Assembly: GCA_035566815.1 (NCBI GenBank)
Contig: DATMQL010000115.1
Coordinates: 1 to 54,891, forward strand
Direction: 5' to 3'
Length of the DNA: 54,891 nt
Source: Steroidobacteraceae bacterium
GTDB lineage: Bacteria > Pseudomonadota > Gammaproteobacteria > Steroidobacterales > Steroidobacteraceae
Shown here: piece after piece, positions 24,116-38,750 of the stretch
How the letters are laid out: every line of letters starts with the position of its first letter
Position numbering within the stretch: the first letter of the stretch is position 1
Made by a program: the position numbers and the translations under genes
Notes under the pieces: model-generated
The model's input: the letters and a program-made list of their open reading frames with translations, nothing else
Told to the model about the DNA's origin: nothing
Database searches by the model: none

Positions 24116-26113
24116 CTAACTTCCGGGCCGGCGCGCCACCGGCAGCGTGAAGGCGATGACATAGTCACCGCGTGGCGTATTGAGAACGCCGTGTCCGCCG
24201 GCCGCGATGACAATGAACTGTCGTTGGTCGCGGCCCGCACGATAGGTCATCGGAGTCGCCTGTCCGCCGGCCGGAAGGCGATGTTTCCACAATTCGCGCC
24301 CGGTCTCGATGTCGAAGGCCCGAAAATAGCTGTCCATTGCCGCTCCGACAAAGACCAGGTCGCCGGCGGTCGCGATGGGTCCGCCCATATTGGGCATCCC
24401 GAAATCCCGCGTCGGCGCGAACCAGGGGCCGACGCCCGCGGTCGAGCCCAGCGGTACCTGCCACACTATACGATTGCGGCGCAGGTCGACGCTCACAAGG
24501 GTACCCCACGGCGGGGACGTGCACGGCAGGCCCCACGGCGACAGGAGCGGCTCGCGGCGCATCGCATAGGGTGTGCCCGCCTGCTTTGCGAATTCGGAGT
24601 TGGGAAAGTTCCCGGAGCGCATCTGGTCCTGCAGTTCGGCCTGGGGAACCAGTGTTACCAGCATCGGCAGGTGGTTCACGGCCGCGATCACGCGTTGCCG
24701 TGGCTCGTCGAATACGATGCCACCCCAGTTGACGCCGCCGATATAGCCCGGCGAAACGATGGTGCCTTGAGGATCCGGAGGCGTGAAGATGCCCTCGTTA
24801 CGATGTTCCGAGAGGAGGTCGCGACACTTGCCCCGGTCCCAGAACGTAACCCCCCAGGCGTCGGCGGGATCGACCGGTTTCTGTGAGACCAGCGAGGCAA
24901 TGGAGGAGAAGGGTTGTGTTGGCGCGGCCTGCTCGCCCGCGACGAAGCTGGGTGGCACGGGTTTCTCGGTGATCGGAAACAGGGGCTGGCCCTTGGTCCG
25001 ATCAAACACATAGAGCATGCCGGTCTTGGTGGCCTGGATGACCGCCGGCACGGGGACGCCCTGGACTTCGATGTCGCCCAACACGGGTTGCGCGGCGAGA
25101 TCGTAATCCCACAGATCGTGATGCACCAGCTGCTGGTGCCATACCAGTTTGCCGCTCTTCGCATCCAACGCCAGGAGCGAGTCGGCGAAGCGATTGCTGC
25201 CGAGGCGGGTGCCGCCGAAGAAGTCGGGGCTCGCGGAGCCTGTTGGGACCAGGACCAGGCCGCTGTCCTCATCGATGGACATCGGGCCCCAGGAGTTGCC
25301 CGCGCCGGTCGTGGCGGCCTGCGCGAGATTCCACTCCGCGGCGGCGGGGTGCGACGGCGAGTCCGGTATGGGATCGAAGGCCCAGAGCAGCGCACCGTTG
25401 CGGGCATCGAAGGCGCGGATGACGCCGCGTTCCACGTCGGATGCCCTGTTGTCACCGATCGCGGAGCCGACCACAACAACATTGCCGTAGATGGCGGGCG
25501 GCGACGTCACCAGGTAGTCAGACCTGTCGAGGATGCGCAGACCGTTGGTGAGGTCAACCTGGCCGCCGCTGCCGAAATCCTTACAGGGCTCGCCGGTCCC
25601 GGCATCGACTGCCAGTAAACGAGCATCCAACGTCCCCGTGAACACCCGGCGCGTACAGGCACCTGAGTGCTTGCTGTCCGGATCCTCCCAGATACTCACA
25701 CCGCGTGAGCTTGCCTCGGCATAGGGGCGTGATCGATCGATATGGGGATCGAATCGCCAGCGCTGCACCCCGGTTTCCGGGTCGAGCGCGATCACGATGT
25801 TCGTCGGGGTCTCGAGATAGAGGAGGCCGAATGCCAGCACGGGCGTCGCCTCGAAGGACAGTTTGTTGGCGCGAGCGAAACCCGCACCGTTCTCCCCGGT
25901 CTGATAAGTCCATGCAACGGTGAGGTGCGTGACGTTCTTGCGGTTGATCTCGTTGAGGCTCGAGAAGTGCTGGCCGAACGTGTCGCCGCCGTAATAGCCC
26001 CAGTCGCTGGCGTCGGGCGTCTGAGCGAATGTCGCACCCCCTGTCACGACCGCGCAGGCCGTGGCCGTTACAATTACGGCACGGCGAGATCCTAAGTGCT
26101 TAAGCGTCCCCAA
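24116..26113 (-). CDS. periplasmic PQQ-dependent dehydrogenase (quinoprotein glucose/alcohol dehydrogenase family)
   Basis: TTG start at 26113 and a signal peptide ...GGATFAQT. Repeated beta-propeller motifs (ALDPETGVQRWRF, AVDAGTGEPC, ALDAKSGKLVWHQ, AFDIETGRELWKH). Confidence 0.85.
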   Translation of the reverse strand: MGTLKHLGSRRAVIVTATACAVVTGGATFAQTPDASDWGYYGGDTFGQHFSSLNEINRKNVTHLTVAWTYQTGENGAGFARANKLSFEATPVLAFGLLYLETPTNIVIALDPETGVQRWRFDPHIDRSRPYAEASSRGVSIWEDPDSKHSGACTRRVFTGTLDARLLAVDAGTGEPCKDFGSGGQVDLTNGLRILDRSDYLVTSPPAIYGNVVVVGSAIGDNRASDVERGVIRAFDARNGALLWAFDPIPDSPSHPAAAEWNLAQAATTGAGNSWGPMSIDEDSGLVLVPTGSASPDFFGGTRLGSNRFADSLLALDAKSGKLVWHQQLVHHDLWDYDLAAQPVLGDIEVQGVPVPAVIQATKTGMLYVFDRTKGQPLFPITEKPVPPSFVAGEQAAPTQPFSSIASLVSQKPVDPADAWGVTFWDRGKCRDLLSEHRNEGIFTPPDPQGTIVSPGYIGGVNWGGIVFDEPRQRVIAAVNHLPMLVTLVPQAELQDQMRSGNFPNSEFAKQAGTPYAMRREPLLSPWGLPCTSPPWGTLVSVDLRRNRIVWQVPLGSTAGVGPWFAPTRDFGMPNMGGPIATAGDLVFVGAAMDSYFRAFDIETGRELWKHRLPAGGQATPMTYRAGRDQRQFIVIAAGGHGVLNTPRGDYVIAFTLPVARRPGS

Positions 26114-28486
26114 GGTCGAGTTTCCGTGGCTGCATGCTGGTATTCTTGCGTGGTGATTTCACCACGGGCGGTCAGGCCCCGTCTCGGGGTATTCGGCGTC
26201 ATTTGTGCGGCTTTCGGGCTCGCCGCATCAGCCGTCACCTTCGCGCAGGAGGCCCCTGACACCGCTCCTCCGACCGCCTCTGCGCCTCCCCATCGGCCCC
26301 GTATCGGCCTCGTCCTGTCGGGCGGCGGTGCGCGTGGCATCGCCCATATCGGCGTACTGAAGGTACTGGAAGAGCAGCACATTCCGATCGATGCGATCGC
26401 CGGCACCAGCATGGGGGCCGTGGTGGGTGGTCTCTACGCGAGCGGCCTCACCGCGCGTGAGATCGAGGGCATCATGAGCTCTCTCAATTGGCAGGACGCC
26501 TTCCGTGACCGGCCGCCTCGCGAGGATCTCACGCTTCGGCGCAAGCAGGAGGATGAGAATTTTCTGGTCAAGTTCCCGTTGGGCATTCGCGGCCACAAGT
26601 TATTGCTGCCCAAGGGTCTGATCCAGGGGCAGCGGCTCAACCAGATTCTGCGGCGTCTCACCCTGCCGGTGGCGCGGATCACAAACTTCGACGAGTTGCC
26701 GACGCCTTTCCGGGCCCTCGCCACCGACCTCGAGACAGGCGACGGGGTCACTATCGCCTCGGGCGATCTCACGAGCGCAATGCGCGCCAGCATGTCCGCG
26801 CCCGGTGTCTTCGCGCCCGTCGAGCGGGACGGGCGTCTGCTCGTGGACGGTGGGATAAGCGAAAACCTCCCTGTCGACATCGCGCGGTCCATGGGTGTCG
26901 ACATTCTCATCGTGGTGGATGTCGGATCGCCCCTTCTGACACGGGAGAAGCTCAACAGCGTGCCGGTCATCTCGAACCAGATGATCGCCATCCTCATTCA
27001 ACGCAATTCCAGGCTGCAGCTCGATAAGCTCCAGGCGCAGGACATCCTGATCGCGCCTCCGTTGGGTGACACGTCGTCATTCGATTTCGGCAACGTCAAG
27101 CGTGTCATTGCGGTGGGCGAGCGCGCCGCGCGCGCTTCGGTGGCGCGCTTCGCAGCGCTCGCCATGACGCCGCAGGAAACGGCGCGTTATGCACAGCGTC
27201 GCGAGGATGCGCGCCAGGTGACCCCGCCGCGTATCGATTTCGTGCAGGTGGACTCGGGCTCGAAAAACTACTCGGAGCGTCTCAACAGCCTGTTCGACGA
27301 TCTCACCGGCAAGCCGCTCGACCCGGATGCGCTGGCGCGCCGGATGACGACGCTCTACGGCGAGGGCAGTCTCGACACGCTCGACTACCAGGTCGTGCAG
27401 GAAAACGATCACTACGGGCTGCAACTCGACGCGCGCGGGAATTCGATAGGCCCGAACTACGTGCGCTTCGGGCTCAGCCTGCAGGAGGATTTCCAGGGCA
27501 CCTCGACTTATGACGCCGCGATGCGCTTCGTGATGTCGGAAATCACGCGGCCGGGTGGTGAGTTCGTATGGGATCTGCAGGTCGGGCAGACCTCGCTGGT
27601 GGCGACCGAGTTGTTTTTGCCGTTCTCGGAGTTTTCCGGCTGGTTCGTCGATCCGCACGCCCAGATCGCCGCCAGCAACGTGCCGCTGTTCGGCAATCAG
27701 AGCCAGGCCGCCGGCGCCGGGAAAACCAACTCCGCGGTGAATCAGACCCAGATCGCGCAGTACCGGCTGCACACCTACGAGTACGGCATCGACGTCGGCA
27801 AACAGTTCGGCAACTGGGGCGAGATCCGCACCGGAATTCAACGCGAGGAGGGTCACTCGCACCTGGAGATCGGCGACCCGAGCGACCCGCTGTTGAAGAG
27901 TCAGCCGAATCAGGACTTCAGCGTGCACGATTACTTCGTGCGGTTCTCCTACGACCGACTCGACAATGTGAATTTCCCACACAGCGGGCAGCAGGCCTCG
28001 TTGCAATGGGATGCCGACCGTAACGTCACCGGCGTCGACAACGTCACCAACCAGGTGGCTTTCAGTTACGTCGGCGCCGCCTCGTTCGGACGTGACACGC
28101 TGGTGCTTTCGGCCAACGCGGGCCTGACATTGGAAGGCAATGTCAACGACGTCCGACTGTTGTATCCGCTCGGCGGCTTTCTGAATCTTTCCGGACTGAG
28201 GGCGGACTCGCTCCTGGGGCCGGATTTTGCGATCGCACGCGTTCTGTACTACCGGCAGGTGGGACGCGGCGGCCCGGGATATTTCGACTTCCCGACCTAC
28301 GTCGGCGTCTCGTTCGAGGACGGCAATGTCTGGCAGAGCCGCCGGGATATCACGTTGGGGAATACACGCAAGGACGCCAGCATTTTCCTCGGCATCGACA
28401 CCTTCCTGGGGCCTATATACGTCGCTACCGGCTTTGACCAGCACGGTAACCAGGCATTTTATTTATTCCTGGGACGGACGTTCTAG
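26096..28486 (+). CDS. patatin-like phospholipase fused to POTRA/Omp85 beta-barrel (PlpD-like, type Vd autotransporter family)
   Basis: Patatin motifs GLVLSGGGARG, GTSMGAVVGG and LLVDGGISENLP. The C-terminal ~400 aa are beta-barrel-like and end in GRTF. The true start is probably a downstream GTG (26126 or 26153), ahead of the signal peptide RPRLGVFGVICAAFGLAASAVTFA. Confidence 0.82.
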   Translation: MLKRPQGRVSVAACWYSCVVISPRAVRPRLGVFGVICAAFGLAASAVTFAQEAPDTAPPTASAPPHRPRIGLVLSGGGARGIAHIGVLKVLEEQHIPIDAIAGTSMGAVVGGLYASGLTAREIEGIMSSLNWQDAFRDRPPREDLTLRRKQEDENFLVKFPLGIRGHKLLLPKGLIQGQRLNQILRRLTLPVARITNFDELPTPFRALATDLETGDGVTIASGDLTSAMRASMSAPGVFAPVERDGRLLVDGGISENLPVDIARSMGVDILIVVDVGSPLLTREKLNSVPVISNQMIAILIQRNSRLQLDKLQAQDILIAPPLGDTSSFDFGNVKRVIAVGERAARASVARFAALAMTPQETARYAQRREDARQVTPPRIDFVQVDSGSKNYSERLNSLFDDLTGKPLDPDALARRMTTLYGEGSLDTLDYQVVQENDHYGLQLDARGNSIGPNYVRFGLSLQEDFQGTSTYDAAMRFVMSEITRPGGEFVWDLQVGQTSLVATELFLPFSEFSGWFVDPHAQIAASNVPLFGNQSQAAGAGKTNSAVNQTQIAQYRLHTYEYGIDVGKQFGNWGEIRTGIQREEGHSHLEIGDPSDPLLKSQPNQDFSVHDYFVRFSYDRLDNVNFPHSGQQASLQWDADRNVTGVDNVTNQVAFSYVGAASFGRDTLVLSANAGLTLEGNVNDVRLLYPLGGFLNLSGLRADSLLGPDFAIARVLYYRQVGRGGPGYFDFPTYVGVSFEDGNVWQSRRDITLGNTRKDASIFLGIDTFLGPIYVATGFDQHGNQAFYLFLGRTF

Positions 28487-28495
28487 ACGTTCTAG
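28478..28495. repeat. 9-bp tandem duplication ACGTTCTAG x2 spanning two convergent stop codons
   Basis: 28478-28486 contains the patatin stop TAG. 28487-28495 contains the stop (CTA on +) of the 88-aa minus-strand ORF. Confidence 0.9.
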
Positions 28496-28758
28496 AGGCC
28501 GCGGCTCTCGGAGAGCTTTTCGACCTTCTCGAAGACCAGGGACGGCTTGTCGGTGGCGCGGGAGTACGGGTGCCTGCGGCTCATCTCCGCCAGCGCGGCG
28601 TCGCGCTCTTCCGGCGACGGATACCAGTGCAGACGGTGCCATTCCGGGCCCAAAAGCTTACGGAACGGGTCGCCGGGCGGAAGGCTCACGCGAACCCCGT
28701 AGGGGCGCAGCTTCTCGATCGGCGGGACACGAAGGTTTTGTGGCTGGCTGATTCCCAT
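28492..28758 (-). CDS. hypothetical 88-aa protein
   Basis: Only the ORF supports this (MGISQPQNLRVPP...HWYPSPEERDAALAEMSRRHPYSR...). It does not overlap a better gene on the other strand. I recognise no motif. Confidence 0.45.
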   Translation of the reverse strand: MGISQPQNLRVPPIEKLRPYGVRVSLPPGDPFRKLLGPEWHRLHWYPSPEERDAALAEMSRRHPYSRATDKPSLVFEKVEKLSESRGL

Positions 28759-28818: not shown

Positions 28819-30183
28819 ATGAAAACTATTGCTGAGCCGGCCCGTGCGGTCGATGTCGTTCTGGAAACCGACGTGCTCGTCGTGGGTAGCGGACCGGGGG
28901 GGCTCGCGGCAGCGCTCGCCGCCGCACGCGCCGGTGCGCGCACCGCACTAATCGATCGGAACGGCTGCTTCGGTGGCAACATCACACAGGTTGGCGTCGA
29001 AGGTTTCGCCTGGTATCGACACGAGCACACCGTGGACTGCGAGGGGATCGGCATCGAGCTCGAGACCCGTGCAACGGCTATGGGCGCCGCGATGCCCGAG
29101 CCACAATCGCTCAGTCATGCGCTCGACGCCGAAATGTTCAAGTGGGTTGCCGATGTTCTCGTCGAGGAGGCGGGTATTACTCCGCTGCTGCATCGGCTAT
29201 GCGTGGCGCCGATCATGGAGAACGGCGCCATCCGTGGTGTGATCACTGAAAGCAAGGCGGGGCGTGAAGCGATCCTCGCCAAGCGCGTCATCGACGCGAC
29301 GGGCGATGCCGACATCGCGGCGCGCGCCGGCGCGCCGTACCATAAGACGCCGAAAGAGAAGATGATGGCGGCGTCCGTCATGTTCTCCATGTCAGGTGTC
29401 AACAAACAGCGCTTCATCGACTCGGTCAAGGCCGATCCGCAGACCTACGCCGACTGGTCCGGCAACGGCGAATGGGACTACGAGACGACGGGTAAGGAGG
29501 ATCAGCTGTTTTCCCCGTTCCTGCGCAAGCCGTTCAAGAAGGCGCTCGAGGCCGGCATCATTCCGCCGTATCTGCATACGATCGCCGGTACCTGGGGCAG
29601 TGTGACCGACCAGGGCGATCTGACCTATCTGAACCTCGTCCACGTACCGGAAATCGACGGCACCGATCCCAACGACCTGACGAAGGGTGAGATCCGTGGC
29701 CGTCGCGAGGCGATTTATGCGATGGAGGCGTTACGCAAATTCATGCCGGGTTGCGAGGACGCGAAGTTGCGTAACTTCGGCATGACGCTGGGCATTCGCG
29801 ACACCCGCAAGATCGACGCTCTCTACAACCTAACCGGGACCGACGTCCGCGAGCAGGCGCGGTTTGACGACGCAATCGGTATTTTTCCCGAGTTCATCGA
29901 TGGCTACGGCATCCTGATCCTGCCGACGACCGGCCGTTACTGGCACGTACCTTATCGGGCGCTCGTACCCAAGGGTGTCGGCAACCTGCTGGTCGCCGGA
30001 CGCTGTATCGGTGGTGACAACGTGTCGCATGCTTCGGCTCGCAACATGATGTGTTGTGCCGTCGGCGGCCAGGGTGCAGGTGTTGCCGCCGCCATCTCGC
30101 TGCAGCGTGATGAGCCGTTCGACGCACTCAACATCGGGGCGGTACAGAAGGAGCTCGCGCGCCAGGGCGCACGCTTCCGGTGA
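28819..30183 (+). CDS. FAD-dependent oxidoreductase (FAD_oxidored / GIDA-like fold), function unknown
   Basis: ORF 28570..30183; ATG at 28819. Dinucleotide fold DVLVVGSGPGGLAAALAAARAGARTALIDRNGCFGGN. The stop overlaps the start of the next gene. Confidence 0.8.
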   Translation: MKTIAEPARAVDVVLETDVLVVGSGPGGLAAALAAARAGARTALIDRNGCFGGNITQVGVEGFAWYRHEHTVDCEGIGIELETRATAMGAAMPEPQSLSHALDAEMFKWVADVLVEEAGITPLLHRLCVAPIMENGAIRGVITESKAGREAILAKRVIDATGDADIAARAGAPYHKTPKEKMMAASVMFSMSGVNKQRFIDSVKADPQTYADWSGNGEWDYETTGKEDQLFSPFLRKPFKKALEAGIIPPYLHTIAGTWGSVTDQGDLTYLNLVHVPEIDGTDPNDLTKGEIRGRREAIYAMEALRKFMPGCEDAKLRNFGMTLGIRDTRKIDALYNLTGTDVREQARFDDAIGIFPEFIDGYGILILPTTGRYWHVPYRALVPKGVGNLLVAGRCIGGDNVSHASARNMMCCAVGGQGAGVAAAISLQRDEPFDALNIGAVQKELARQGARFR

Positions 30184-31481
30184 GTCAGGCCGTCGTCAGC
30201 ACGGGTGACGAAGCTGGCTATGATCCTTCGCCCCTGCGCTGGTGGGCCCTGGCCCTCTCGGCCATCGCGATTTTCAGCAGTTACTACGAGTCAGATGCGA
30301 TCGGGCCGATAGCCGACCTGCTCGGGCGGCAACGCGGCCTGACCCAATTGCAGATCGGTGACCTGACCGCTGTCATAAGCCTGCCCAACATCCCACTCGC
30401 GGTGATCAACGGACTGCTGGTCGATCGTTATGGTCCCGCCCGCATATCCCTGTGGGCCGCGCTCATCGGCTTTGGCGGCGGTGTGCTGACCGCGATCGGG
30501 ACGCCCTATGACCTCATGTGGATCGGGCGCTTCGTGTTCGGTGTCAGCGAGGGTGCGATCTTCATCTCTCTGCTGGCGGGACTTGCGCAATGGTTTCCGC
30601 GCTCCGGCATCGCGCTGGCCACGGCGCTATTCCTGAGCCTCGCGCGTGTTGGATCTTTCTCGCTCGACACGTCGCCTTCCTGGGCGCGTTCGCTTTATGA
30701 CGCCGGCTGGCAGCCGCCGTTGTGGCTGGGCGCGGGAATCACCGGCATCGGCCTGCTGGCGGTGATTGCGATTCGGCTGCTCGACTCGAAACGGGTGCCG
30801 CTCGTGTCCGCCGGGCCCGCGCTGACCGGGCGAATGTCCTGGTCGGCGATCTGGAAGTTCGACCTGTCATATTGGTACATCCTCGGATTGCACGTGCTCT
30901 ACGCGGCCGTCTTCTTTCCCTTCCGGCAGACGTTTGCGATCGAGTACCTCCAGCACGCCAAGGGCCTGACATTGCAGCAGGCCGGCAGCGTCAATTCAGG
31001 AGTGTTTGCGGCTGCGGTTTTCGCGACCCCGCTGTTTGGATTGCTCGCGGATCGCTTCGGACATCGCGCGCTGATGCTCACTTTCGGGACGCTGCTGTTG
31101 CCCCTCACGTTCGTCGTGTTGGGGCTCACGGATCTCAGCCCCTGGATTTCCACCGTGCTCATGGGAGTGAGCTGGTCGCTGGTGCCGGCAGTCATCTGGC
31201 CGGCGACAACACTGCTCGTGGAGCAGCGGCGCCTGGGTACCGCGCTCGGCATCATCATCATGTTGCAGAATGTTGCCTTGTGGAGCTCCAACCGCTGCGC
31301 CGGCTGGCTGGCGGACCTGGCTGGTGCGGGTGCGGCGAATCCGGGCGGCTACGCCATCATGTTATGGTTTTTCGGTTTGCTCAGCCTTACGGCGCTGACC
31401 TCGGTGGTGCTGCTGTGGTGTCGGGAAAGCGGGCCGAACGGTCATGGATTGGAGCTCGCACGACCTGTTACAGGTCGATGA
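30180..31481 (+). CDS. MFS transporter
   Basis: The GTG at 30180 overlaps the upstream TGA (GTGA). About 12 hydrophobic segments and an MFS loop motif, GLLVDRYGPAR. Confidence 0.8.
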   Translation: MSQAVVSTGDEAGYDPSPLRWWALALSAIAIFSSYYESDAIGPIADLLGRQRGLTQLQIGDLTAVISLPNIPLAVINGLLVDRYGPARISLWAALIGFGGGVLTAIGTPYDLMWIGRFVFGVSEGAIFISLLAGLAQWFPRSGIALATALFLSLARVGSFSLDTSPSWARSLYDAGWQPPLWLGAGITGIGLLAVIAIRLLDSKRVPLVSAGPALTGRMSWSAIWKFDLSYWYILGLHVLYAAVFFPFRQTFAIEYLQHAKGLTLQQAGSVNSGVFAAAVFATPLFGLLADRFGHRALMLTFGTLLLPLTFVVLGLTDLSPWISTVLMGVSWSLVPAVIWPATTLLVEQRRLGTALGIIIMLQNVALWSSNRCAGWLADLAGAGAANPGGYAIMLWFFGLLSLTALTSVVLLWCRESGPNGHGLELARPVTGR

Positions 31482-31554
31482 CATTTGGTACTTTGCGATG
31501 GAAAGTAGTGACCGGGGCCCCGTATGATGGTGGGCCGGTTGCCTGGATGGGTTC

Positions 31555-32688
31555 ATGTCGCGAAGCCAATCGACTCAGAGGTTTGATCTCGCCGTTGTAG
31601 GCGCCGGCATCGTTGGCCTCGCCGCGGCCTTGGCCGCTGCCCGGCGCGGATTGCGTGTGATCGTGATCGATCGCGACGCGCAGGCGAACGGCGCGTCCGT
31701 CCGCAACTTCGGCTTCATAACCGTCACCGGACAAGACCGCAAATCGATGTGGGCGCGCGCGTGTCGCAGTCGCGAGATATGGCGCGACGTGGCTGCTGCG
31801 GCCGGCATACCGATCGTTCACACAGGCCTGTGGGTGACCGCCCGTCGCCCTGAATCGGTGCATGTATTAGAGGCGTTCATGGCGACCGAAATGGCCTCGG
31901 GGTGCCGGCTGTTGAGTCCCACCGAGGCGCGCAGGCGTTGCCCGCAATTGGTCGCGCCGGAAATGGCAGTGGTGCTCGAAAGCACTACTGAGCTGCGTGT
32001 CGAATCGCGTGAGGCTATTCCGCGTCTTGCTGCATGGCTTTCCGGTGCTCACGGGGTCACCTTCATGCGCGAGACCACCGTACGTGGCATCGACATGCCC
32101 AGCGTTCATACATCGCGCGGTACGGTGCAGGCTGATCGGGTGGCTGTTTGCCCCGGAGACGATTTCAACGGGCTGTATCCGGATCGCCTCGGGGCCTATG
32201 CCCTCACCCGTTGCAAGTTGCAGATGTTGCGACTGGCCGACCCCGGATTCAAATTGCCCGGCGCGTTGATGTCGGATCTTGGGCTGGTGCGATATCGAGG
32301 TTATGCGGATCTGGAAGCAGCCGAACCCCTGAAGACGCGCCTTGCCATCGAACAAGCGGATCATCTGAAGCATGGCGTGCATCTGATCGTCGTGCAAGGT
32401 GCGGACGGAAGCCTCGTCGTCGGGGACAGTCATCATTACGCCGCAACTCCAGACCCGTTTTCTTACGAGGAAGTCGATGAGCTGATTCTCGACGAGTTTC
32501 GTGCCGCACTGGGAATCGAGCCGCCGCCGACTGTCGAGCGTTGGATCGGGACATACGCCTCTGCCGCCGATCGCCCGGTGTTGATCGACGCTCCTGAAGA
32601 TTCCGTCCGCCTTGCGATCGTCACTTGCGGCGCGGGTGCGTCCACGGGTTTTGCGATCGGTGAGGAACTGGTCAGCAGTCTTTTCTAA
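31555..32688 (+). CDS. FAD-dependent amine oxidoreductase (DAO family; resembles the TIGR03364 clade linked to phosphonatase genes)
   Basis: RFDLAVVGAGIVGLAAALAAARRGLRVIVIDRDAQANGASVRNFGF; 377 aa. Ends 14 nt upstream of phnX. Confidence 0.75.
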   Translation: MSRSQSTQRFDLAVVGAGIVGLAAALAAARRGLRVIVIDRDAQANGASVRNFGFITVTGQDRKSMWARACRSREIWRDVAAAAGIPIVHTGLWVTARRPESVHVLEAFMATEMASGCRLLSPTEARRRCPQLVAPEMAVVLESTTELRVESREAIPRLAAWLSGAHGVTFMRETTVRGIDMPSVHTSRGTVQADRVAVCPGDDFNGLYPDRLGAYALTRCKLQMLRLADPGFKLPGALMSDLGLVRYRGYADLEAAEPLKTRLAIEQADHLKHGVHLIVVQGADGSLVVGDSHHYAATPDPFSYEEVDELILDEFRAALGIEPPPTVERWIGTYASAADRPVLIDAPEDSVRLAIVTCGAGASTGFAIGEELVSSLF

Positions 32689-32702
32689 ACTGGAGTTGTA
32701 AC

Positions 32703-33518
32703 GTGATCCTCAAAGACCGCTTCGACCTGGTCATTTTCGATTGGGCCGGCACGATGGTGGACTTCGGTTGCGAGGCACCGGTCAAGGCGCTGATCGAGGC
32801 ATTCGGCGCCGAGGGCGTGGTCATGGATGCGGCGACGGTACGACACGATATGGGCAAGGCTAAACGCGATCATGTCCGCAGCCTCCTGGCGGAGCCCCCG
32901 GTCGCGGCCGCCTGGCAGAGTCATCACGGCCATGTTGCGAACGAAGAGGACGTCGACATACTCGTCGCGCGTCTCGGTCCGTTGATGCGCGACTACGCGG
33001 CGCGCGCTTCCACACTTATACCCGGTGCACGGGAGGCTGTTGACCGGTTACGAGCCGCCGGTTTGAGGATTGCCTCCTCTACCGGATACACGCGTGAAAT
33101 GATGGAGCACGTTCTATCGCGGGCGGCGGCCCAGGGTTATGCACCCGAGCATGTCGTCTGTTCGGGCGAGGCATCGGCAGGGCGCCCTTCGCCGGCAATG
33201 ATATTCAAAGCTTGCGCGGAAATGGGCATTTCCCCCTCACGGGTCGTCAAAGTAGACGACGCGGAGGTTGGTATCGCGGAAGGCCGGGCCGCGGGTGCGT
33301 TCACTGTCGGAGTCGCATCGGGTAATGCGCTCGGTCTCTCGCTCGAGGACTTTCAGGCACTGTCATTGTCCGAGCGCGAGAAGCGGGTGGGGATTGCCCG
33401 CCAGGCGTTGCTCGATGCGGGCGCGGATCTCGTTGTCGGCTCGGTCGCGGAGTTGGTTCCCGCGCTCGAGCGGTCTATAGACGGTAACGGACCAGGGCAT
33501 CTCCCAGCGCATTCTTGA
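32703..33518 (+). CDS. phnX: phosphonoacetaldehyde hydrolase (phosphonatase)
   Basis: GTG start. HAD motif I FDWAGTMVDFGCEAP, Schiff-base Lys region MGKAKRDHV, SSTGYTREMM, AGRPSP, KVDDAEVGIAEGRAAG and SGNALGLSLEDFQALS. All are collinear with the B. cereus and P. aeruginosa PhnX sequences as I recall them. Confidence 0.88.
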   Translation: MILKDRFDLVIFDWAGTMVDFGCEAPVKALIEAFGAEGVVMDAATVRHDMGKAKRDHVRSLLAEPPVAAAWQSHHGHVANEEDVDILVARLGPLMRDYAARASTLIPGAREAVDRLRAAGLRIASSTGYTREMMEHVLSRAAAQGYAPEHVVCSGEASAGRPSPAMIFKACAEMGISPSRVVKVDDAEVGIAEGRAAGAFTVGVASGNALGLSLEDFQALSLSEREKRVGIARQALLDAGADLVVGSVAELVPALERSIDGNGPGHLPAHS

Positions 33519-35520
33519 GCGGCCCGAGCGCGAACTCGTAGTGCTTCCACTGGTCGAGGCCCTCGCGGAAGATCGGCTGCCGAACCTGCTCCGAGCTGGC
33601 CGTGCGTACGCTGCGCTCGGTCTTGTAAAACTCGACGCAGGCCGGCTCGAAGTCCAGCCCGCAGAAATCGAGAATCCGCCGCACGTTGTGCTCCAGGTCA
33701 TCGACCACGTCCTCGTGCCAGACCCGCAGCACCTTCCCCGGTAGCACCTCGTCCCAGTGTTGCATCAGCTCGAGATAGGTCCGGTAGTAGCGGGCGATAT
33801 CCTCGATGCTGTACGCAAACTCCTGGCCGCTGGCAAACAGCTGTTTCAGATTGCTGAAGCAGCACGCCAGCGGCTCACGCCGAGCGTCGATGATCCGGGC
33901 GTTCGGCAGCAGCAGGTGGATCAGGCCGATGTGTCTGAAGTTGTTCGGCATCTTGTCGATGAAGTAGGGCGGGGGCGCGCCAGCCGGGGGCGCCTGCGTC
34001 TCGCTCGTGCGGTAGACGCGCGTATCGCTCAAGTATTTTTCCCCCAGGCGCAGGAAGTCCTCGGCCTGAAGGCTCGCGAGCACTCCCGGGTAGCGTGGAT
34101 TGTCGAGGTCCGGATCGCGCCCCTGCAGATCGAGCGCGATGCGCGGAATGTCGGCGAGTTCCTGGGTTCCCTCGACGAGGGAATGTGACGCCAGGATCTG
34201 CTCCAGCAGCGTCGAGCCGGCACGGGGCAGCCCGAGGATGAAAATGGGGTCGGGGCTGCGAGCGCCGACGCCCGCGCGGCTCGCGAAAAACTCACGCGTG
34301 CAGACCTCGATCTGCCGGCGCGTGTTGGTCTCAATGATCTCCGGCCGATAGCGGCTTTCCTTTCTCTTCAGGCCGTTACCCTGCTCGTAGAAGCGCCACG
34401 ACTTCGGGTAATCGCCCCGATCCTCGAACGCCTTGCCGAGCGCGAAGCAGAGGTGATAGCGATCGACGAGCTCAGTGGCGGGCGCGGATTCGTCCGCGAC
34501 CATCTGCGCGATCTCGCCGTCGGTAAAGCGATAGGTCTTGAGATTCGCGAGGCTCCACCAGGCGTCGCCAAAACTCGGGCGGGCCGCTGCCGCGGCCCGA
34601 TACGCCTCGATGGATTCTTGCCGCCGTCCCAGGGTCTTGAGTGAATGGGCGACCGAGAGGCGCAGATCGGCCGCCTCCGGCGCGTCAACCAGGAGTTCCC
34701 GGTAGAGCGTAATCGCCTTCTCGTGCTCACCGAGCCCAACACATGTCGTCGCGTAGAGCGTCTTGTATTGTTTGTTATGGGGCTCGAGCTTCAGGAGGGC
34801 TTCGAGCTCCTTGCGCGCGGCAGCGTGCTTGTGACGCTCTGCCAACACGCAGGCAAAATCATAGCGGGCGGCCTGGTAGCCGGGGGCGAGCTGGAGCACG
34901 GCATCGAGCAGGAGCTCCGCATCATCGAGCACATCACGCTCGATGCCGATCCGCGCCAGCAAGCGCATGGCCTCGATGTGATTGCCATGTTGGAGGAGAT
35001 AGGCGCGGATGATGTTCTCTGCAGGTAGCAGATCGCCGTCAGAGAACAGGGACGTTGCCTGCATGACCTCCGGTGGAAGTCGCTGCAGGGTGGCGACATG
35101 CGCGGCGGCCACGCCGGCGTTGTCACTTTGCCCTGTCATCCGATAGAGACCCTCGAGCATGCTCCAGCTGGCGGGCAATGCCGGGTTGATGTTGACTCCC
35201 TTGAGGAAGGCATCGATTGCCCGTGGTGCATCCCGCAGTGTGACGTAGCAGTGTCCGCGCTCCTGGTACAAGCGGCTGAATCGCGGATGGTGGCGCTCGA
35301 GGCGCTCCAAAGTAGCGAGGGCCTCCGGAATCCGGCCCAGATACCGCTGGCTCATTGCGATGAGGTACAGCACATCGCGGTTTTCGGGTACTTCGACGGC
35401 GAGCGTCTCGGCCGCCCGCAAAGCCTCGGCGTGCTGGTGGCTCTTGAGGAGTTCGCGTATGAGGCGAACTTCCGGTTCCACCTGTGAGGTGGTAGGCGCT
35501 TCGGCTGCAGTAGAGTCCAT
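33475..35520 (-). CDS. TPR-repeat protein fused to a C-terminal sulfotransferase domain
   Basis: The N-terminal ~400 aa are TPR repeats. The C-terminal domain has the PAPS 5'-phosphosulfate loop GLPRAGSTLLEQILASH and a downstream ARREPLACCFSNLKQLF segment. It overlaps the phnX 3' end by 44 nt (convergent). Confidence 0.8.
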   Translation of the reverse strand: MDSTAAEAPTTSQVEPEVRLIRELLKSHQHAEALRAAETLAVEVPENRDVLYLIAMSQRYLGRIPEALATLERLERHHPRFSRLYQERGHCYVTLRDAPRAIDAFLKGVNINPALPASWSMLEGLYRMTGQSDNAGVAAAHVATLQRLPPEVMQATSLFSDGDLLPAENIIRAYLLQHGNHIEAMRLLARIGIERDVLDDAELLLDAVLQLAPGYQAARYDFACVLAERHKHAAARKELEALLKLEPHNKQYKTLYATTCVGLGEHEKAITLYRELLVDAPEAADLRLSVAHSLKTLGRRQESIEAYRAAAAARPSFGDAWWSLANLKTYRFTDGEIAQMVADESAPATELVDRYHLCFALGKAFEDRGDYPKSWRFYEQGNGLKRKESRYRPEIIETNTRRQIEVCTREFFASRAGVGARSPDPIFILGLPRAGSTLLEQILASHSLVEGTQELADIPRIALDLQGRDPDLDNPRYPGVLASLQAEDFLRLGEKYLSDTRVYRTSETQAPPAGAPPPYFIDKMPNNFRHIGLIHLLLPNARIIDARREPLACCFSNLKQLFASGQEFAYSIEDIARYYRTYLELMQHWDEVLPGKVLRVWHEDVVDDLEHNVRRILDFCGLDFEPACVEFYKTERSVRTASSEQVRQPIFREGLDQWKHYEFALGPLKNALGDALVRYRL

Positions 35521-35590: not shown

Positions 35591-38278
35591 TCAGAACTTG
35601 TAGCTGATCTTCAGCCCGAGCACGCGCGGGCGCAGGGGCACTTCCGACTTGATGAACTGCGCCGACGAGGTGAACACGCTGGCGTCGCTGTTGCTCAGGT
35701 TGTTGCCGAATACCGAGGCACTCCAATTATCCTTGCTCACGCCAATCGCCGCGTCGTAGGTAGTGTACGCCGGCATCTCATAACGGAGGAACGTCGTGTC
35801 GGGCACGGTTTCCGAGTTGCCGTCCTTGTAGGTCGCGGGCTGGTTGAACATGGAGCCCACATGGTTGGCTCCGAACATCGCGTAGGCCTTGTAGTCGCCA
35901 AAGGTCCGGTCATAGCGGGCGCGCATGTTGAACTCCGAGGAGGGCGAGAAGGCCGGCACGGTGCCCTCGGCTCCGAACGGGTTCTGGAACGGCACATTCG
36001 CCTTCAGACCGGCCGAGTAAACCTGGGTGATGCACTGGCCTAGTGTCGGGCTGCCCGGCTCATTGGAGATCAGGCAGGGGGAACTGGCCTGCCTGGATCG
36101 GTTCCATGAGCCCGAACCCTGCAGAGTGAGTCCGTCGGTGACGCGCGCCGTCAACTGCAGCTCGACGCCATTGACGGTGTAGTTTGGCCCCGTGACGCCG
36201 AAGGTCGTGTTACCGAGCGAAACAGGGTTGTAGAACAACAGCTGCACGTTGTCCCAGTTCATGTGGTACAGCGACGCGTTCACCTGCAGGCGATGGTCGA
36301 GGAACTCCGACTTCACCCCGATTTCGTTGTTGGTCAACGAGTCGGGCGCGTAGCCGCTCGGAGTCTTGTATTGCGGGACGACGCCGCCGGCGTCGTTCAG
36401 GATCGTGGCTTTGTCGCGTTGTGAGCGGTTGAAGGCGCCCGGACGGAAGCCTTGCGAGAAGGTGTAGTAGACCATCGCATCAGGCGTGATGTGCCAGGTC
36501 AGGTTGCCGCGGCTGCGAAAGCCGGTGTAGGTTTTGCGCAGATTTTCCGCGTCGATGTTGGTTTGCCCGCCCGTGCATTGGCCGTTCGGCACGTTGACGC
36601 AACCAGTTCCGGTGGCATAAACGGATCCCGTCTCGAATTCGCTGTAGCGGTACCAGCGCGTGCCGCCCGTTACGGTGAGCACCTTCGGGATGATGTCGTA
36701 GTCAACCGAGGTGAAGAATGCGGTCTGCTTGTAACCGCGCTGTGCGTCCTCGCCGAACGCGGTGTTGTCATTGCGCACGCCGGGATCTACAGCGGTGCTT
36801 CCTGGAGCCGTCTTGACGTTAGCGACGCAGGGCGCCCCTCCACCCAAAGCGGCGGTTAGGTTATCCGGAGTGCACGACGGGATGGTCTTGTAGAGGAAGT
36901 TCATCACGTCCTGGATCTCGAAGTCCTCCCAGTACGCTCCCGCTATCGCACGCGCGCGCCAGTCGTCTGGCGTGCTCAGGCGAAACTCATGGCTCTGATG
37001 AGTGTTCCGCACCGTGTCGTGCCAGGAAGTGACCGGCGAGTAACACGTCGGGGTCGTTCCGGATCCGAGCCCACTTCCCCCGGTGCAGCTGTAGTACCAC
37101 CCGCCCGCGCTGCGCGCGTAGTTGGTGTAGTCGTTGGTCTGGTCGATGTGGCGCACCAGGTAACCGCCGGTATAGACGGCCTTCAGATCGCCGATCTTGC
37201 CGTTGACGGTCCAGGAGGTGTCTTCGAACTTATCCTTGTCGTAGGCGGGGGTGAATGCGGTCACCTCCCAGGGGCTGAGCTTCTGGCCGTCGGATCCGAT
37301 CGGGAATTGCGTGAACTCGCCGTCCGCTTCCATGTTCTGGTAGCTCTGCGCGACCAACACGTCCCAGTCGTCGTTGATTTGATACAAGGCCGAGGCGCGT
37401 ATGCCGTTATAGTCGACCGGGTTGGAGGCGCGGCCCGCGAGACCGTTATTGTTGACGACCGGGCTGCCCGGCACCGCGCAGTAGGTCGAGGTGGCCGGCA
37501 GGCCATTGGGGCAAACGCCGCCGGTCGGCTTGATGCCGGCGTAGAAATTGCCTAAATCGCTGTTCTTGCGGGTGAAGGTGCTCGGAACGTTGTCGATGTA
37601 GCCGCCGCGATGGTCGCTATAGATGACGGCGCGCACGGCCAGGGTATCCTGGATGAGCGGCAGGTTGATGGTCGCATTGGCACTGCCGTTGTTGCTTCCA
37701 TGGGCCGTCGTACCGTAACTCCCCTCGGCATTCCCCTCGGTGACGTTCAGTTTCGGCTTGTTGGTGATGTAGCGGACCGCGCCGGCCTCGGCGCCGCCGC
37801 CGAACAACGTACCCTGCGGACCTTCGAGCACCTCCACGCGCTCCATGTCCACGAAGTAGACATCCAGGTTACGCGCCGGGAACGTCAGCGACTGGTCGTC
37901 GAGGTAGGTCGCGACGTTCGGGAACTGGGCGATGGTGGCGCTCGACTGGTTACCGGCGAATCCGGCGCTCAGGCCGCGCATGAAGATGTTGCCCGAGCCG
38001 GGACCGTTCTGTCCGAAGGTCACGTTCGGCAGGTACTTGATGGCCTCATCGAAGTTCGTGACGTTCAGCTGGCCGAGTTGCTCGCCGGTAATCGCCTGGA
38101 TGGTGATGGGAACCTGCTGGACGGATTCATTGCGGCGCTGCGCCGTGACCGTCACTTCGGTAATTCCCTCGAAATCACCCGATTCGGCCGCCGGGGCGGC
38201 GTGCGCGGCCCCGGCGCCCAGGGCGGACGCGCTCAAAATGGTGGCAATAGCCCGGGATAGCTTGTGATTTGATTTCAT
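35591..38278 (-). CDS. TonB-dependent outer-membrane receptor
   Basis: Signal peptide ...GAGAAHA, a TonB-box/plug start ITEVTVTAQRR, a long beta-barrel, and a C-terminal LGLKISYKF ending in Phe. Confidence 0.9.
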   Translation of the reverse strand: MKSNHKLSRAIATILSASALGAGAAHAAPAAESGDFEGITEVTVTAQRRNESVQQVPITIQAITGEQLGQLNVTNFDEAIKYLPNVTFGQNGPGSGNIFMRGLSAGFAGNQSSATIAQFPNVATYLDDQSLTFPARNLDVYFVDMERVEVLEGPQGTLFGGGAEAGAVRYITNKPKLNVTEGNAEGSYGTTAHGSNNGSANATINLPLIQDTLAVRAVIYSDHRGGYIDNVPSTFTRKNSDLGNFYAGIKPTGGVCPNGLPATSTYCAVPGSPVVNNNGLAGRASNPVDYNGIRASALYQINDDWDVLVAQSYQNMEADGEFTQFPIGSDGQKLSPWEVTAFTPAYDKDKFEDTSWTVNGKIGDLKAVYTGGYLVRHIDQTNDYTNYARSAGGWYYSCTGGSGLGSGTTPTCYSPVTSWHDTVRNTHQSHEFRLSTPDDWRARAIAGAYWEDFEIQDVMNFLYKTIPSCTPDNLTAALGGGAPCVANVKTAPGSTAVDPGVRNDNTAFGEDAQRGYKQTAFFTSVDYDIIPKVLTVTGGTRWYRYSEFETGSVYATGTGCVNVPNGQCTGGQTNIDAENLRKTYTGFRSRGNLTWHITPDAMVYYTFSQGFRPGAFNRSQRDKATILNDAGGVVPQYKTPSGYAPDSLTNNEIGVKSEFLDHRLQVNASLYHMNWDNVQLLFYNPVSLGNTTFGVTGPNYTVNGVELQLTARVTDGLTLQGSGSWNRSRQASSPCLISNEPGSPTLGQCITQVYSAGLKANVPFQNPFGAEGTVPAFSPSSEFNMRARYDRTFGDYKAYAMFGANHVGSMFNQPATYKDGNSETVPDTTFLRYEMPAYTTYDAAIGVSKDNWSASVFGNNLSNSDASVFTSSAQFIKSEVPLRPRVLGLKISYKF

Positions 38279-38750
38279 TGCTTTAAGTCCGTCCCTAATT
38301 GCTCGAATCGAAGTCGGGCGGCAGGCGTGCTGACTCGCCTGTCGTACGGAGGCGTGCGCCTGCCGGGCGCCGCCGGGATTGTTGTGTCAGCTGGAGCGCT
38401 TGAGACGAAGGGCCGGGTGAGCTTGCGCCGTGATGCACCGGAATAACATCACCGAGCGCAGGGCTGCACCAATTTCGACCTGACACCGCTTCGTCGCGTG
38501 GTGTTTTTGCAACAAGCGCCTGCTGGGTTAGATGTTAGGAGCCCAATGTTGCAGTATGGTGACACACAACCTTACAAGAGAATTGTGTCGGAAGTCGGGA
38601 GTGCCTCAGTGGCAGGGCGCGGGGGAGTGTAACGGCAGGATGCGGCAGCGGCCTGGCCTGCAGCGCTCGAGGGGCGCTGCAGGCGGGCTGGCGGTCTGGA
38701 GATTCAGTGTCGGGGGATGCGAGCTCGTGGATGCAGCCCCGTAGGTGACG

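Follow-up and report, generated by a model that had tools for sequence, protein, structure and literature searches.

Introduction

How does a bacterium that carries the gene for phosphonoacetaldehyde hydrolase (phnX), with no gene for the transaminase PhnW beside it, obtain phosphonoacetaldehyde, and what do the flavoprotein and permease genes that accompany phnX contribute? This question is raised by a stretch of DNA from a soil bacterium of the Steroidobacteraceae (contig DATMQL010000115.1 of assembly GCA_035566815.1, positions 1 to 54,891 of the forward strand), called the window here at its full length of 54,891 nucleotides. A prediction made from the sequence alone had described four genes of one orientation at 28819-33518: a flavoprotein, a major facilitator superfamily (MFS) permease, a second FAD oxidoreductase of the DAO type, and PhnX. 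It proposed that, if the four form one operon, the two flavoproteins together make a route to phosphonoacetaldehyde. A sizeable share of organic phosphorus is phosphonate. Few substrates enter the known hydrolytic pathways, and the list of compounds known to be mineralised has grown with each accessory enzyme found (PbfA-G).

We compared the window with related loci and genomes. With moderate confidence, we read the region as a phosphorus-scavenging island in which a core of the FAD amine oxidase PbfD and PhnX is joined by a companion module for import that includes the first flavoprotein. The genes and sequence elements concerned are as follows.

28819-30183, plus strand: first flavoprotein, a PF12831 FAD-dependent oxidoreductase of 454 aa, cytoplasmic, with a single FAD Rossmann motif (Pfam)
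30180-31481, plus strand: MFS permease, 433 aa (Pfam MFS_1, 122 bits)
31482-31554: spacer of 74 nt between the MFS gene and pbfD
31555-32688, plus strand: pbfD, FAD amine oxidase of the TIGR03364 family (NCBIfam)
32703-33518, plus strand: phnX, phosphonoacetaldehyde hydrolase (NCBIfam TIGR01422 and PDB alignments)
33475-35520, minus strand: TPR and Sulfotransfer_3 protein, 681 aa (Pfam), called TPR-sulfotransferase below
35591-38278, minus strand: TonB-dependent receptor, 895 aa, with signal peptide and with plug and barrel domains (Pfam)
38548-38565, minus strand: weak Pho-box-like sequence, 9/14, about 270 nt upstream of the receptor start codon (window scan)

The four predicted genes lie at the positions given for them, and the family assignments of all four pass curated cut-offs. 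The TPR-sulfotransferase and the TonB-dependent receptor had been overlooked as members of the island; the gene set that recurs in relatives includes both. The TPR-sulfotransferase gene is convergent with phnX and overlaps it by 44 nt.

Results and Discussion

A PbfD-PhnX core

The product of 32703-33518 matched TIGR01422 with 298.6 bits (cut-off 220) over profile positions 2-250 of 251, and reached only 94.9 bits with the PhnX-like family TIGR03351 (cut-off 218.9). It aligns full-length to solved PhnX structures, with PDB matches at E 1e-47 to 1e-52; among the PhnX-type chains are 3iru and, at E 1e-47 to 1e-49, 1fez, 1rql and 2iof. The segments IFDWAGT and MGKAK align to DWAGT and MGTEK of these chains, so that the nucleophile Asp and the Schiff-base Lys segment MGxxK are conserved. 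We take the Lys of MGxxK to be the catalytic Schiff-base residue, as in the Bacillus cereus enzyme. The gene starts with GTG, has a GGAG ribosome-binding site 7 nt upstream, and follows pbfD on the same strand after a gap of 14 nt (32689-32702). Judged by its sequence, this protein is a true PhnX, as originally predicted.

The oxidoreductase gene directly upstream had been likened to the TIGR03364 clade from its N-terminal sequence. Its product scored 423.4 bits against this family (cut-off 285.1) over profile positions 2-365 of 365. In gene clusters for 2-aminoethylphosphonate (AEP), FAD oxidoreductases have been divided into three groups, and the PbfD group is the one that is annotated as TIGR03364 in GenBank (Zangelmi et al. 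2023, iScience 26:108108, PMC10590968). PbfD enzymes work as oxidases without a protein partner, and their oxidation of N-methyl-AEP to phosphonoacetaldehyde has been shown biochemically (PMC10590968). PbfD2 of Mariniblastus fucicola oxidises plain AEP almost equally well and thus replaces PhnW, and clusters of pbfD and phnX without phnW are explicitly presented as a third version of the pathway (PMC10590968). The statement in the original prediction that FAD enzymes can replace or extend PhnW in AEP catabolism was therefore correct for PbfD.

By analogy with the characterised PbfD1 and PbfD2, the predicted reaction of the window's PbfD is AEP or N-methyl-AEP + O2 -> phosphonoacetaldehyde + NH3 or methylamine + H2O2. 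PhnX would then convert phosphonoacetaldehyde to acetaldehyde and phosphate, and PhnW would be dispensable. The closest precedent is the PbfD2-PhnX pair of M. fucicola. Similar to the window, a TIGR03364 FAD amine oxidase gene lies directly upstream of phnX in that organism, which has no phnW in the cluster or the genome; there AEP or N-methyl-AEP is turned into phosphonoacetaldehyde by the oxidase, before PhnX frees the phosphate. Unlike in M. fucicola, the pair in the window is joined by the PF12831 flavoprotein, the MFS permease, the TonB-dependent receptor and the TPR-sulfotransferase, none of which is mentioned in PMC10590968. The pbfD-phnX pair is a PhnW-independent phosphonatase route, which is published knowledge and no discovery of the present work.

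Search for phnW

The absence of phnW from the cluster, as predicted, was confirmed and followed into the genome. The organism's own assembly is a metagenome-assembled genome, 71% complete and in 521 contigs, and its best match to TIGR02326 scored 254 bits (cut-off 400.8). This leaves room for a classical PhnW-dependent phosphonatase pathway, in which phnW would lie in the unassembled 29% of the genome and PbfD would merely widen the range to N-methyl-AEP. Related islands do exist in which phnW occurs together with pbfD and phnX (L030, L037, L068 and L071). PhnA, PhnY, PhnR, DUF5690 and a PhnZ-type HD protein were likewise not found in the 71%-complete assembly; the first four of these count against a PhnW-dependent pathway. 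Furthermore, four relatives with both pbfD and phnX, at 93-98% completeness (G019, G067, G071 and G086), yielded no phnW, and in a sample of 101 Steroidobacteraceae genomes this gene was confined to genomes of the phnA type. We therefore consider a PhnW-dependent pathway in this organism quite improbable.

Phosphonate genes around the flavoprotein in relatives

We collected 95 loci of the first flavoprotein from 80 species-representative genomes, whose flavoproteins are 86-93% identical to that of the window, from the family sample of 101 genomes, and from the window itself. Open reading frames (ORFs) of these loci were clustered by conservation and the recurrent clusters were named with Pfam and NCBIfam; ORF cluster c110, present at L024 and L060, is phnW. 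A gene for a phosphonate enzyme or regulator was found within 10 kb of the flavoprotein gene in 45/95 loci. Of the 55 loci that extend at least 8 kb to either side, 36 had phosphonate genes, 10 had a receptor or sulfotransferase only, and 9 had neither. The genes within 10 kb, with the number of loci out of 95, were:

MFS permease, 58
TonB receptor, 47
TPR-sulfotransferase, 47
PbfD, 29
PhnA (TIGR02335, 590 bits), 19
PhnR (TIGR03338), 16
PhnX, 15
PhnY (TIGR03250, 704 bits), 13
DUF5690, 13
PhnW, 10
PhnZ/TmpB-like HD oxygenase, 9

A TmpA/PhnY*-like dioxygenase, an OPA-type MFS protein and TauD were also seen near the flavoprotein.

These genes are arranged in several ways. In one architecture phnY, phnA, phnR, sometimes pbfD, the TPR-sulfotransferase gene and the receptor gene all read to the left, and the flavoprotein and MFS genes follow, reading to the right; five genomes of this type have phnW just beyond the flank and no pbfD. 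In another, phnX and pbfD read to the left, and a DUF5690 gene (in some loci), the flavoprotein gene and the MFS gene read to the right. A third lacks the MFS gene, and genes for an OPA-type protein, a dioxygenase, an HD protein, the flavoprotein, PbfD and PhnX all read in one direction. The order flavoprotein, pbfD, phnX on one strand occurs in L030, L035, L037 and L068, and in L035 pbfD starts no more than 8 nt from the flavoprotein stop codon. The HD gene directly precedes the flavoprotein gene in four loci, three of them with gaps of 35-45 nt and the fourth, L068, with overlapping called ORFs. Phosphonate genes flank the flavoprotein gene on both sides in L048, L082 and L101. G071 has the six genes of the window in another order, its receptor pair being inverted, and in G019 a TonB receptor gene sits between pbfD and phnX.

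The flavoprotein is an optional accessory. It was found with pbfD-phnX, phnW-phnY-phnA-phnR and HD-oxygenase (phnZ-type) clusters, and G067, G075, G027 and G048 have islands without it. One of the latter, L019 (G067:C10, 6513-16481), has an MFS gene, the receptor gene and the TPR-sulfotransferase gene in one direction, pbfD and phnX in the same direction, and between these two groups an ORF of 431 aa on the opposite strand, which is probably DUF5690.

Two further companions of the islands were noted. A TauD equivalog (437 bits against a cut-off of 313) lies inside phosphonate islands beside the flavoprotein in L030, L035, L037, L045, L071 and L074; it seems that genes for 2-aminoethyl-X compounds collect in the islands. 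DUF5690 (PF18943, about 430 aa) stands beside pbfD, phnX or the receptor at L013:14709-16001, L063:1379-2698, L018:16199-17485 and 10 other loci. We take it for a probable membrane transporter; no NCBIfam family covers it, and no relevant paper was found.

Co-occurrence in genomes

The flavoprotein is present in 18/101 genomes of the family sample, and its tree splits a basal clade (nine loci) from a large clade that includes the window. PbfD, PhnX or PhnA was found in 7/7 genomes with a flavoprotein of the window-type clade, to which G056 was assigned by identity only, and in 6/94 of the others. Fisher's exact test gave p about 1e-7 for the clade split, which was recognised after the context labels had been seen, and p = 0.0016 for all flavoprotein genomes; neither value corrects for relatedness. 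In a prediction test we took five further genomes in which no phosphonate enzyme is encoded within 10 kb of the flavoprotein gene. Each of the five has a match to PhnX or PhnA elsewhere, and in one of them the PhnX match is partial and below the cut-off. The flavoprotein and the phosphonate genes also vary together within two genera (g1 and g2), and the other three genomes of the window's genus lack the flavoprotein, PbfD and PhnX alike. Neighbourhood, genome co-occurrence and the operon-like fusions with pbfD-phnX in other loci thus agree with the original prediction that the first flavoprotein and the MFS permease are tied to phosphonate catabolism, within this family.

The first flavoprotein and its permease

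The product of 28819-30183 matched PF12831 (FAD_oxidored) with 303.2 bits, against a gathering score of 27, over profile positions 1-416 of 416. PF01266 reached 19.3 bits at the N-terminus only, below its cut-off of 27.9, and there was no match to TIGR03364 or to any specific NCBIfam family. A PbfB-, PbfC- or PbfD-like identity, all three of these being PF01266 proteins, was rejected on these scores. In the AlphaFold2 model (pLDDT 95.3, pTM 0.94), a single Rossmann domain for FAD is joined to a beta-rich substrate domain, and a second dinucleotide site is missing. The best folds found by VIA-align were FixC of the EtfABCX complex (7koe_G, Z 21.6) and the geranylgeranyl-reductase-like 3oz2 (Z 21.4). 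Halogenases, hydroxylases, fumarate-reductase-type enzymes and amine oxidases followed as weaker matches at Z 17-19. The ESM Atlas returned only clusters named 'FAD-dependent oxidoreductase', and literature searches on PF12831 and on phosphonate use by Steroidobacteraceae found nothing relevant.

The predicted translational coupling to the MFS gene was borne out: in the sequence GTGA the TGA stop codon of the flavoprotein gene overlaps the GTG start codon of the MFS gene. This overlap of 4 nt was called in 40/58 related loci in which an MFS gene follows the flavoprotein gene. The flavoprotein gene is nearly always followed by an importer gene, mostly MFS, and in some loci, such as L045 and L071, an amino-acid permease stands in the place of the MFS protein. 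The amino-acid permease hints at an amino substrate. The best match of the window's MFS permease among specific families was a weak one to TIGR00893, the anion:cation symporter or D-galactonate transporter family (47.8 bits, below the cut-off).

TonB receptor, TPR-sulfotransferase and Pho boxes

In 47/95 loci an orthologue of the TPR-sulfotransferase (61-79% identity) has the receptor, the flavoprotein or phosphonate genes as neighbours. The TonB-dependent receptor is the probable outer-membrane importer of the island's substrate. A siderophore-type reading of receptor, MFS permease and a flavin reductase was considered; no siderophore-receptor equivalog matched, and the promoter of relatives is of the Pho type and not of the Fur type so far as it was examined. 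TPR-Sulfotransfer_3 genes are often in tandem and often beside TonB receptor genes, and a second subtype carries an N-terminal SEC-C motif (L061:2591-4810).

We defined a Pho box as at least two CTGTCAT half-sites with 11-bp phasing, scored out of 14. The region between the receptor and flavoprotein genes of relatives contains arrays of such half-sites in 11-bp phasing, followed by a -10 element of the TAAAAA type. A match of at least 12/14 was present in 22/86 loci, with 0.05 expected from shuffled sequences, and two loci had a perfect 14/14. All of these boxes point to the receptor gene, away from the flavoprotein, and stand about 200-300 nt from the receptor start codon. In eight loci (L072, L077, L078, L083, L053, L047, L073 and L093), two to four half-sites form an array that is followed by a long leader before the receptor, a promoter of classic PhoB type; counted from the flavoprotein start, these arrays are about 83-172 nt upstream and on the opposite strand. 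These promoter sequences assign the receptor/TPR-sulfotransferase unit of those relatives to the Pho regulon; we do not extend this to the flavoprotein gene, which reads in the opposite direction. Within the window, the spacer 31482-31554 contains one weak sigma-70-like match and, on the opposite strand, one Pho-box-like match of 11/14, neither above chance.

AEP is known to enter cells through ABC systems and AepP (cited in PMC10590968). For TonB-dependent uptake of phosphonates, the searchable literature yielded no example, and nothing relevant was found on TPR-sulfotransferases with TonB. A similar gene arrangement has been noted for other substrates. The 'CUT loci' of Xanthomonas, reportedly described by Blanvillain et al. 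in 2007, are said to consist of a TonB-dependent receptor, an inner-membrane MFS transporter and cytoplasmic enzymes. The island shares with them the receptor, the MFS protein and cytoplasmic catabolic enzymes around a divergent promoter region. Unlike the CUT loci, whose cargo is carbohydrate, the island in the window would handle a phosphonate, and the receptor gene of its relatives stands behind a Pho-box promoter.

Role of the flavoprotein

The flavoprotein probably serves phosphonate use, an assignment that we hold with fair rather than high confidence. Comparative genomics suggests a scheme in which the TonB-dependent receptor would carry a phosphonate substrate over the outer membrane, the MFS permease would carry it over the inner membrane, and the PF12831 flavoprotein would perform a redox step on this substrate or a close analogue. 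The likeliest step would be to oxidise an amine or alcohol related to AEP, one that PbfD or PhnW refuses, and so to add to the pool of phosphonoacetaldehyde. Since many islands have PbfD as well as the flavoprotein, a simple duplication of the PbfD activity is unlikely. We advance only tentatively the proposal that it is a new phosphonate breakdown factor, for e.g. N,N-dimethyl-AEP, 2-hydroxyethylphosphonate or a hydroxy-AEP isomer, served by a Pho-regulated import route of TonB receptor and MFS permease. That its specific reaction is the oxidation of an imported AEP analogue into the phosphonoacetaldehyde pool is the model we prefer, yet one to which we give a rather low probability.

The proposal has a parallel in the ancillary 'phosphonate breakdown factors' PbfA-PbfG (Zangelmi 2021, 2023; Ruffolo 2025, PMC12366243; Piazza 2026, PMC13576164). 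These are ancillary enzymes that funnel AEP analogues into phosphonoacetaldehyde. As with them, the gene of the flavoprotein is optional and turns up repeatedly in clusters for AEP degradation that differ in core type (phnWYA, pbfD-phnX and phnZ), the pattern by which the Peracchi group operationally defines a recurrent ancillary gene. The flavoprotein is of another family: PbfB, PbfC and PbfD belong to PF01266, PbfA is a PLP lyase, PbfF an NAD racemase, and PbfG and PhpC are Zn alcohol dehydrogenases. The association of the flavoprotein also differs in being seen so far in one bacterial family, with homologues elsewhere that are not linked to phosphonates. A neighbour in the basal clade, a Zn-dehydrogenase, was considered as PbfG and rejected; it is an acrylyl-CoA reductase (AcuI equivalog).

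Several observations weigh against a phosphonate role of the flavoprotein and against the island as a functional unit. All positive loci come from one bacterial family, so that shared descent inflates the counts, and the clade split was drawn with the contexts in view. We examined 80 metagenomic loci of the nearest outgroup, the P0121-like homologues, which are 60-76% identical and come from many environments. No phosphonate genes and no conserved neighbours were found there, the adjacent genes being unrelated ones such as those for YqeY, DsbB and arginyl-tRNA synthetase; the association is thus not confirmed beyond Steroidobacteraceae. Within the family, the basal clade (nine loci in the tree, about 11 sampled genomes by identity) occurs in genomes without PbfD, PhnX and PhnA. 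Its context, shared by G019, consists of an acrylyl-CoA reductase, a sugar-acid-dehydratase-like protein of the enolase type and another MFS protein. G019 has the flavoprotein-MFS pair and the pbfD/phnX locus on different contigs, and the island of G067 keeps an MFS gene without the flavoprotein. A phmmer search of the PDB matched the N-terminal Rossmann motif only, and Foldseek gave TM-scores of no more than 0.5 for the model. The structural matches are generic for the superfamily and none is functional, so that, as far as the model can tell, the chemistry is not readable from homology. Nothing found here supports the predicted two-flavoprotein route to phosphonoacetaldehyde. The PF12831 protein is not of the PF01266 family, has no functional structural match, and has 60-76%-identical homologues without phosphonate context. 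In the window the best Pho box upstream of the receptor scores 9/14, which is not significant alone, and none of at least 9/14 lies upstream of the flavoprotein; the 9/14 sequence stands at the same distance from the receptor start as the strong Pho boxes of relatives. The TPR-sulfotransferase is a generic partner of TonB receptors and not specific to phosphonates: it belongs to a large paralogous family, present in 61/101 genomes in up to 7 copies with a continuum of identity. The G+C content at third codon positions (GC3) is 0.67 and 0.69 in pbfD and phnX and 0.76-0.84 in every neighbouring gene of the window. This step in composition suggests that pbfD-phnX may be a separately and more recently acquired cassette.

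Much of this would also fit a rival explanation, in which the flavoprotein and MFS genes form a separate catabolic or uptake module for something other than phosphonates, and this module and the phosphonate genes both gather at nutrient-uptake hot spots marked by TonB receptors and TPR-sulfotransferases. The generic nature of the receptor/TPR-sulfotransferase units, the homologues without phosphonate context, the acrylyl-CoA reductase/dehydratase context, the island of G067 and the GC3 step all speak for it. So does the fact that the commonest upstream neighbour of the flavoprotein is a divergent receptor (29 loci) and not a phosphonate enzyme. However, all checked genomes of the window-type clade have phosphonate genes, even when these are 30-70 kb away or on another contig. 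The operon-like junctions of the flavoprotein gene with pbfD-phnX and with the HD gene have no receptor between them, phosphonate genes stand on both sides of the flavoprotein in several loci, and the two sets of genes have been gained or lost together within g1 and g2. We regard a separate module as unlikely, though it is the most serious competitor. An indirect role is another explanation: the flavoprotein would oxidise a nitrogen-containing by-product of PhnZ-like enzymes or PbfD (glycine, sarcosine or a methylamine-type compound), or act as an electron sink like FixC or ETF-QO (electron-transfer flavoprotein-quinone oxidoreductase), and would make no phosphonoacetaldehyde. FixC is indeed the top structural match. 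Moreover, the flavoprotein accompanies three different routes of C-P cleavage (PhnX, PhnA and HD oxygenase), which a shared side function explains more easily, and its widely conserved homologues outside phosphonate contexts fit a generic reaction. However, the tight translational coupling to importers, whether MFS or amino-acid permease, points to an imported substrate, no ETF genes were seen near the flavoprotein, and PbfD oxidases need no protein partner (PMC10590968). Such an indirect role appears very improbable to us. We thus continue to favour a phosphonate-scavenging island in which the flavoprotein acts on what is imported.

Borders of the island

Directly upstream of the flavoprotein gene on the same strand, 26096-28486 encodes a patatin-like phospholipase of 796 aa. 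This gene adjoins the flavoprotein gene in none of the related loci and is therefore probably not part of the island. An ORF of 88 aa on the minus strand (28492-28758) lies between the two; its GC3 of 0.84 is coding-like, and neither a Pfam match nor a counterpart among the 94 related loci was found.

Implications

What is new here is the link of the flavoprotein-MFS pair to the phosphonate system, with comparative support restricted to the family, and its extension to the receptor/TPR-sulfotransferase pair. If the flavoprotein does not act on phosphonates, the locus would be an ordinary example of PbfD-PhnX, which still extends this pathway to a further gammaproteobacterial family. Activity of the PF12831 protein on a phosphonate would bring a new enzyme family into the phosphonate toolkit, and the import route, if true, would be the first TonB-dependent phosphonate uptake system described. 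The receptor and the permease would in that case illustrate how phosphonates at low concentration are captured by Gram-negative bacteria of soils. Steroidobacteraceae are abundant in soils and peat, to judge from how many near-identical homologues occur in metagenomes.

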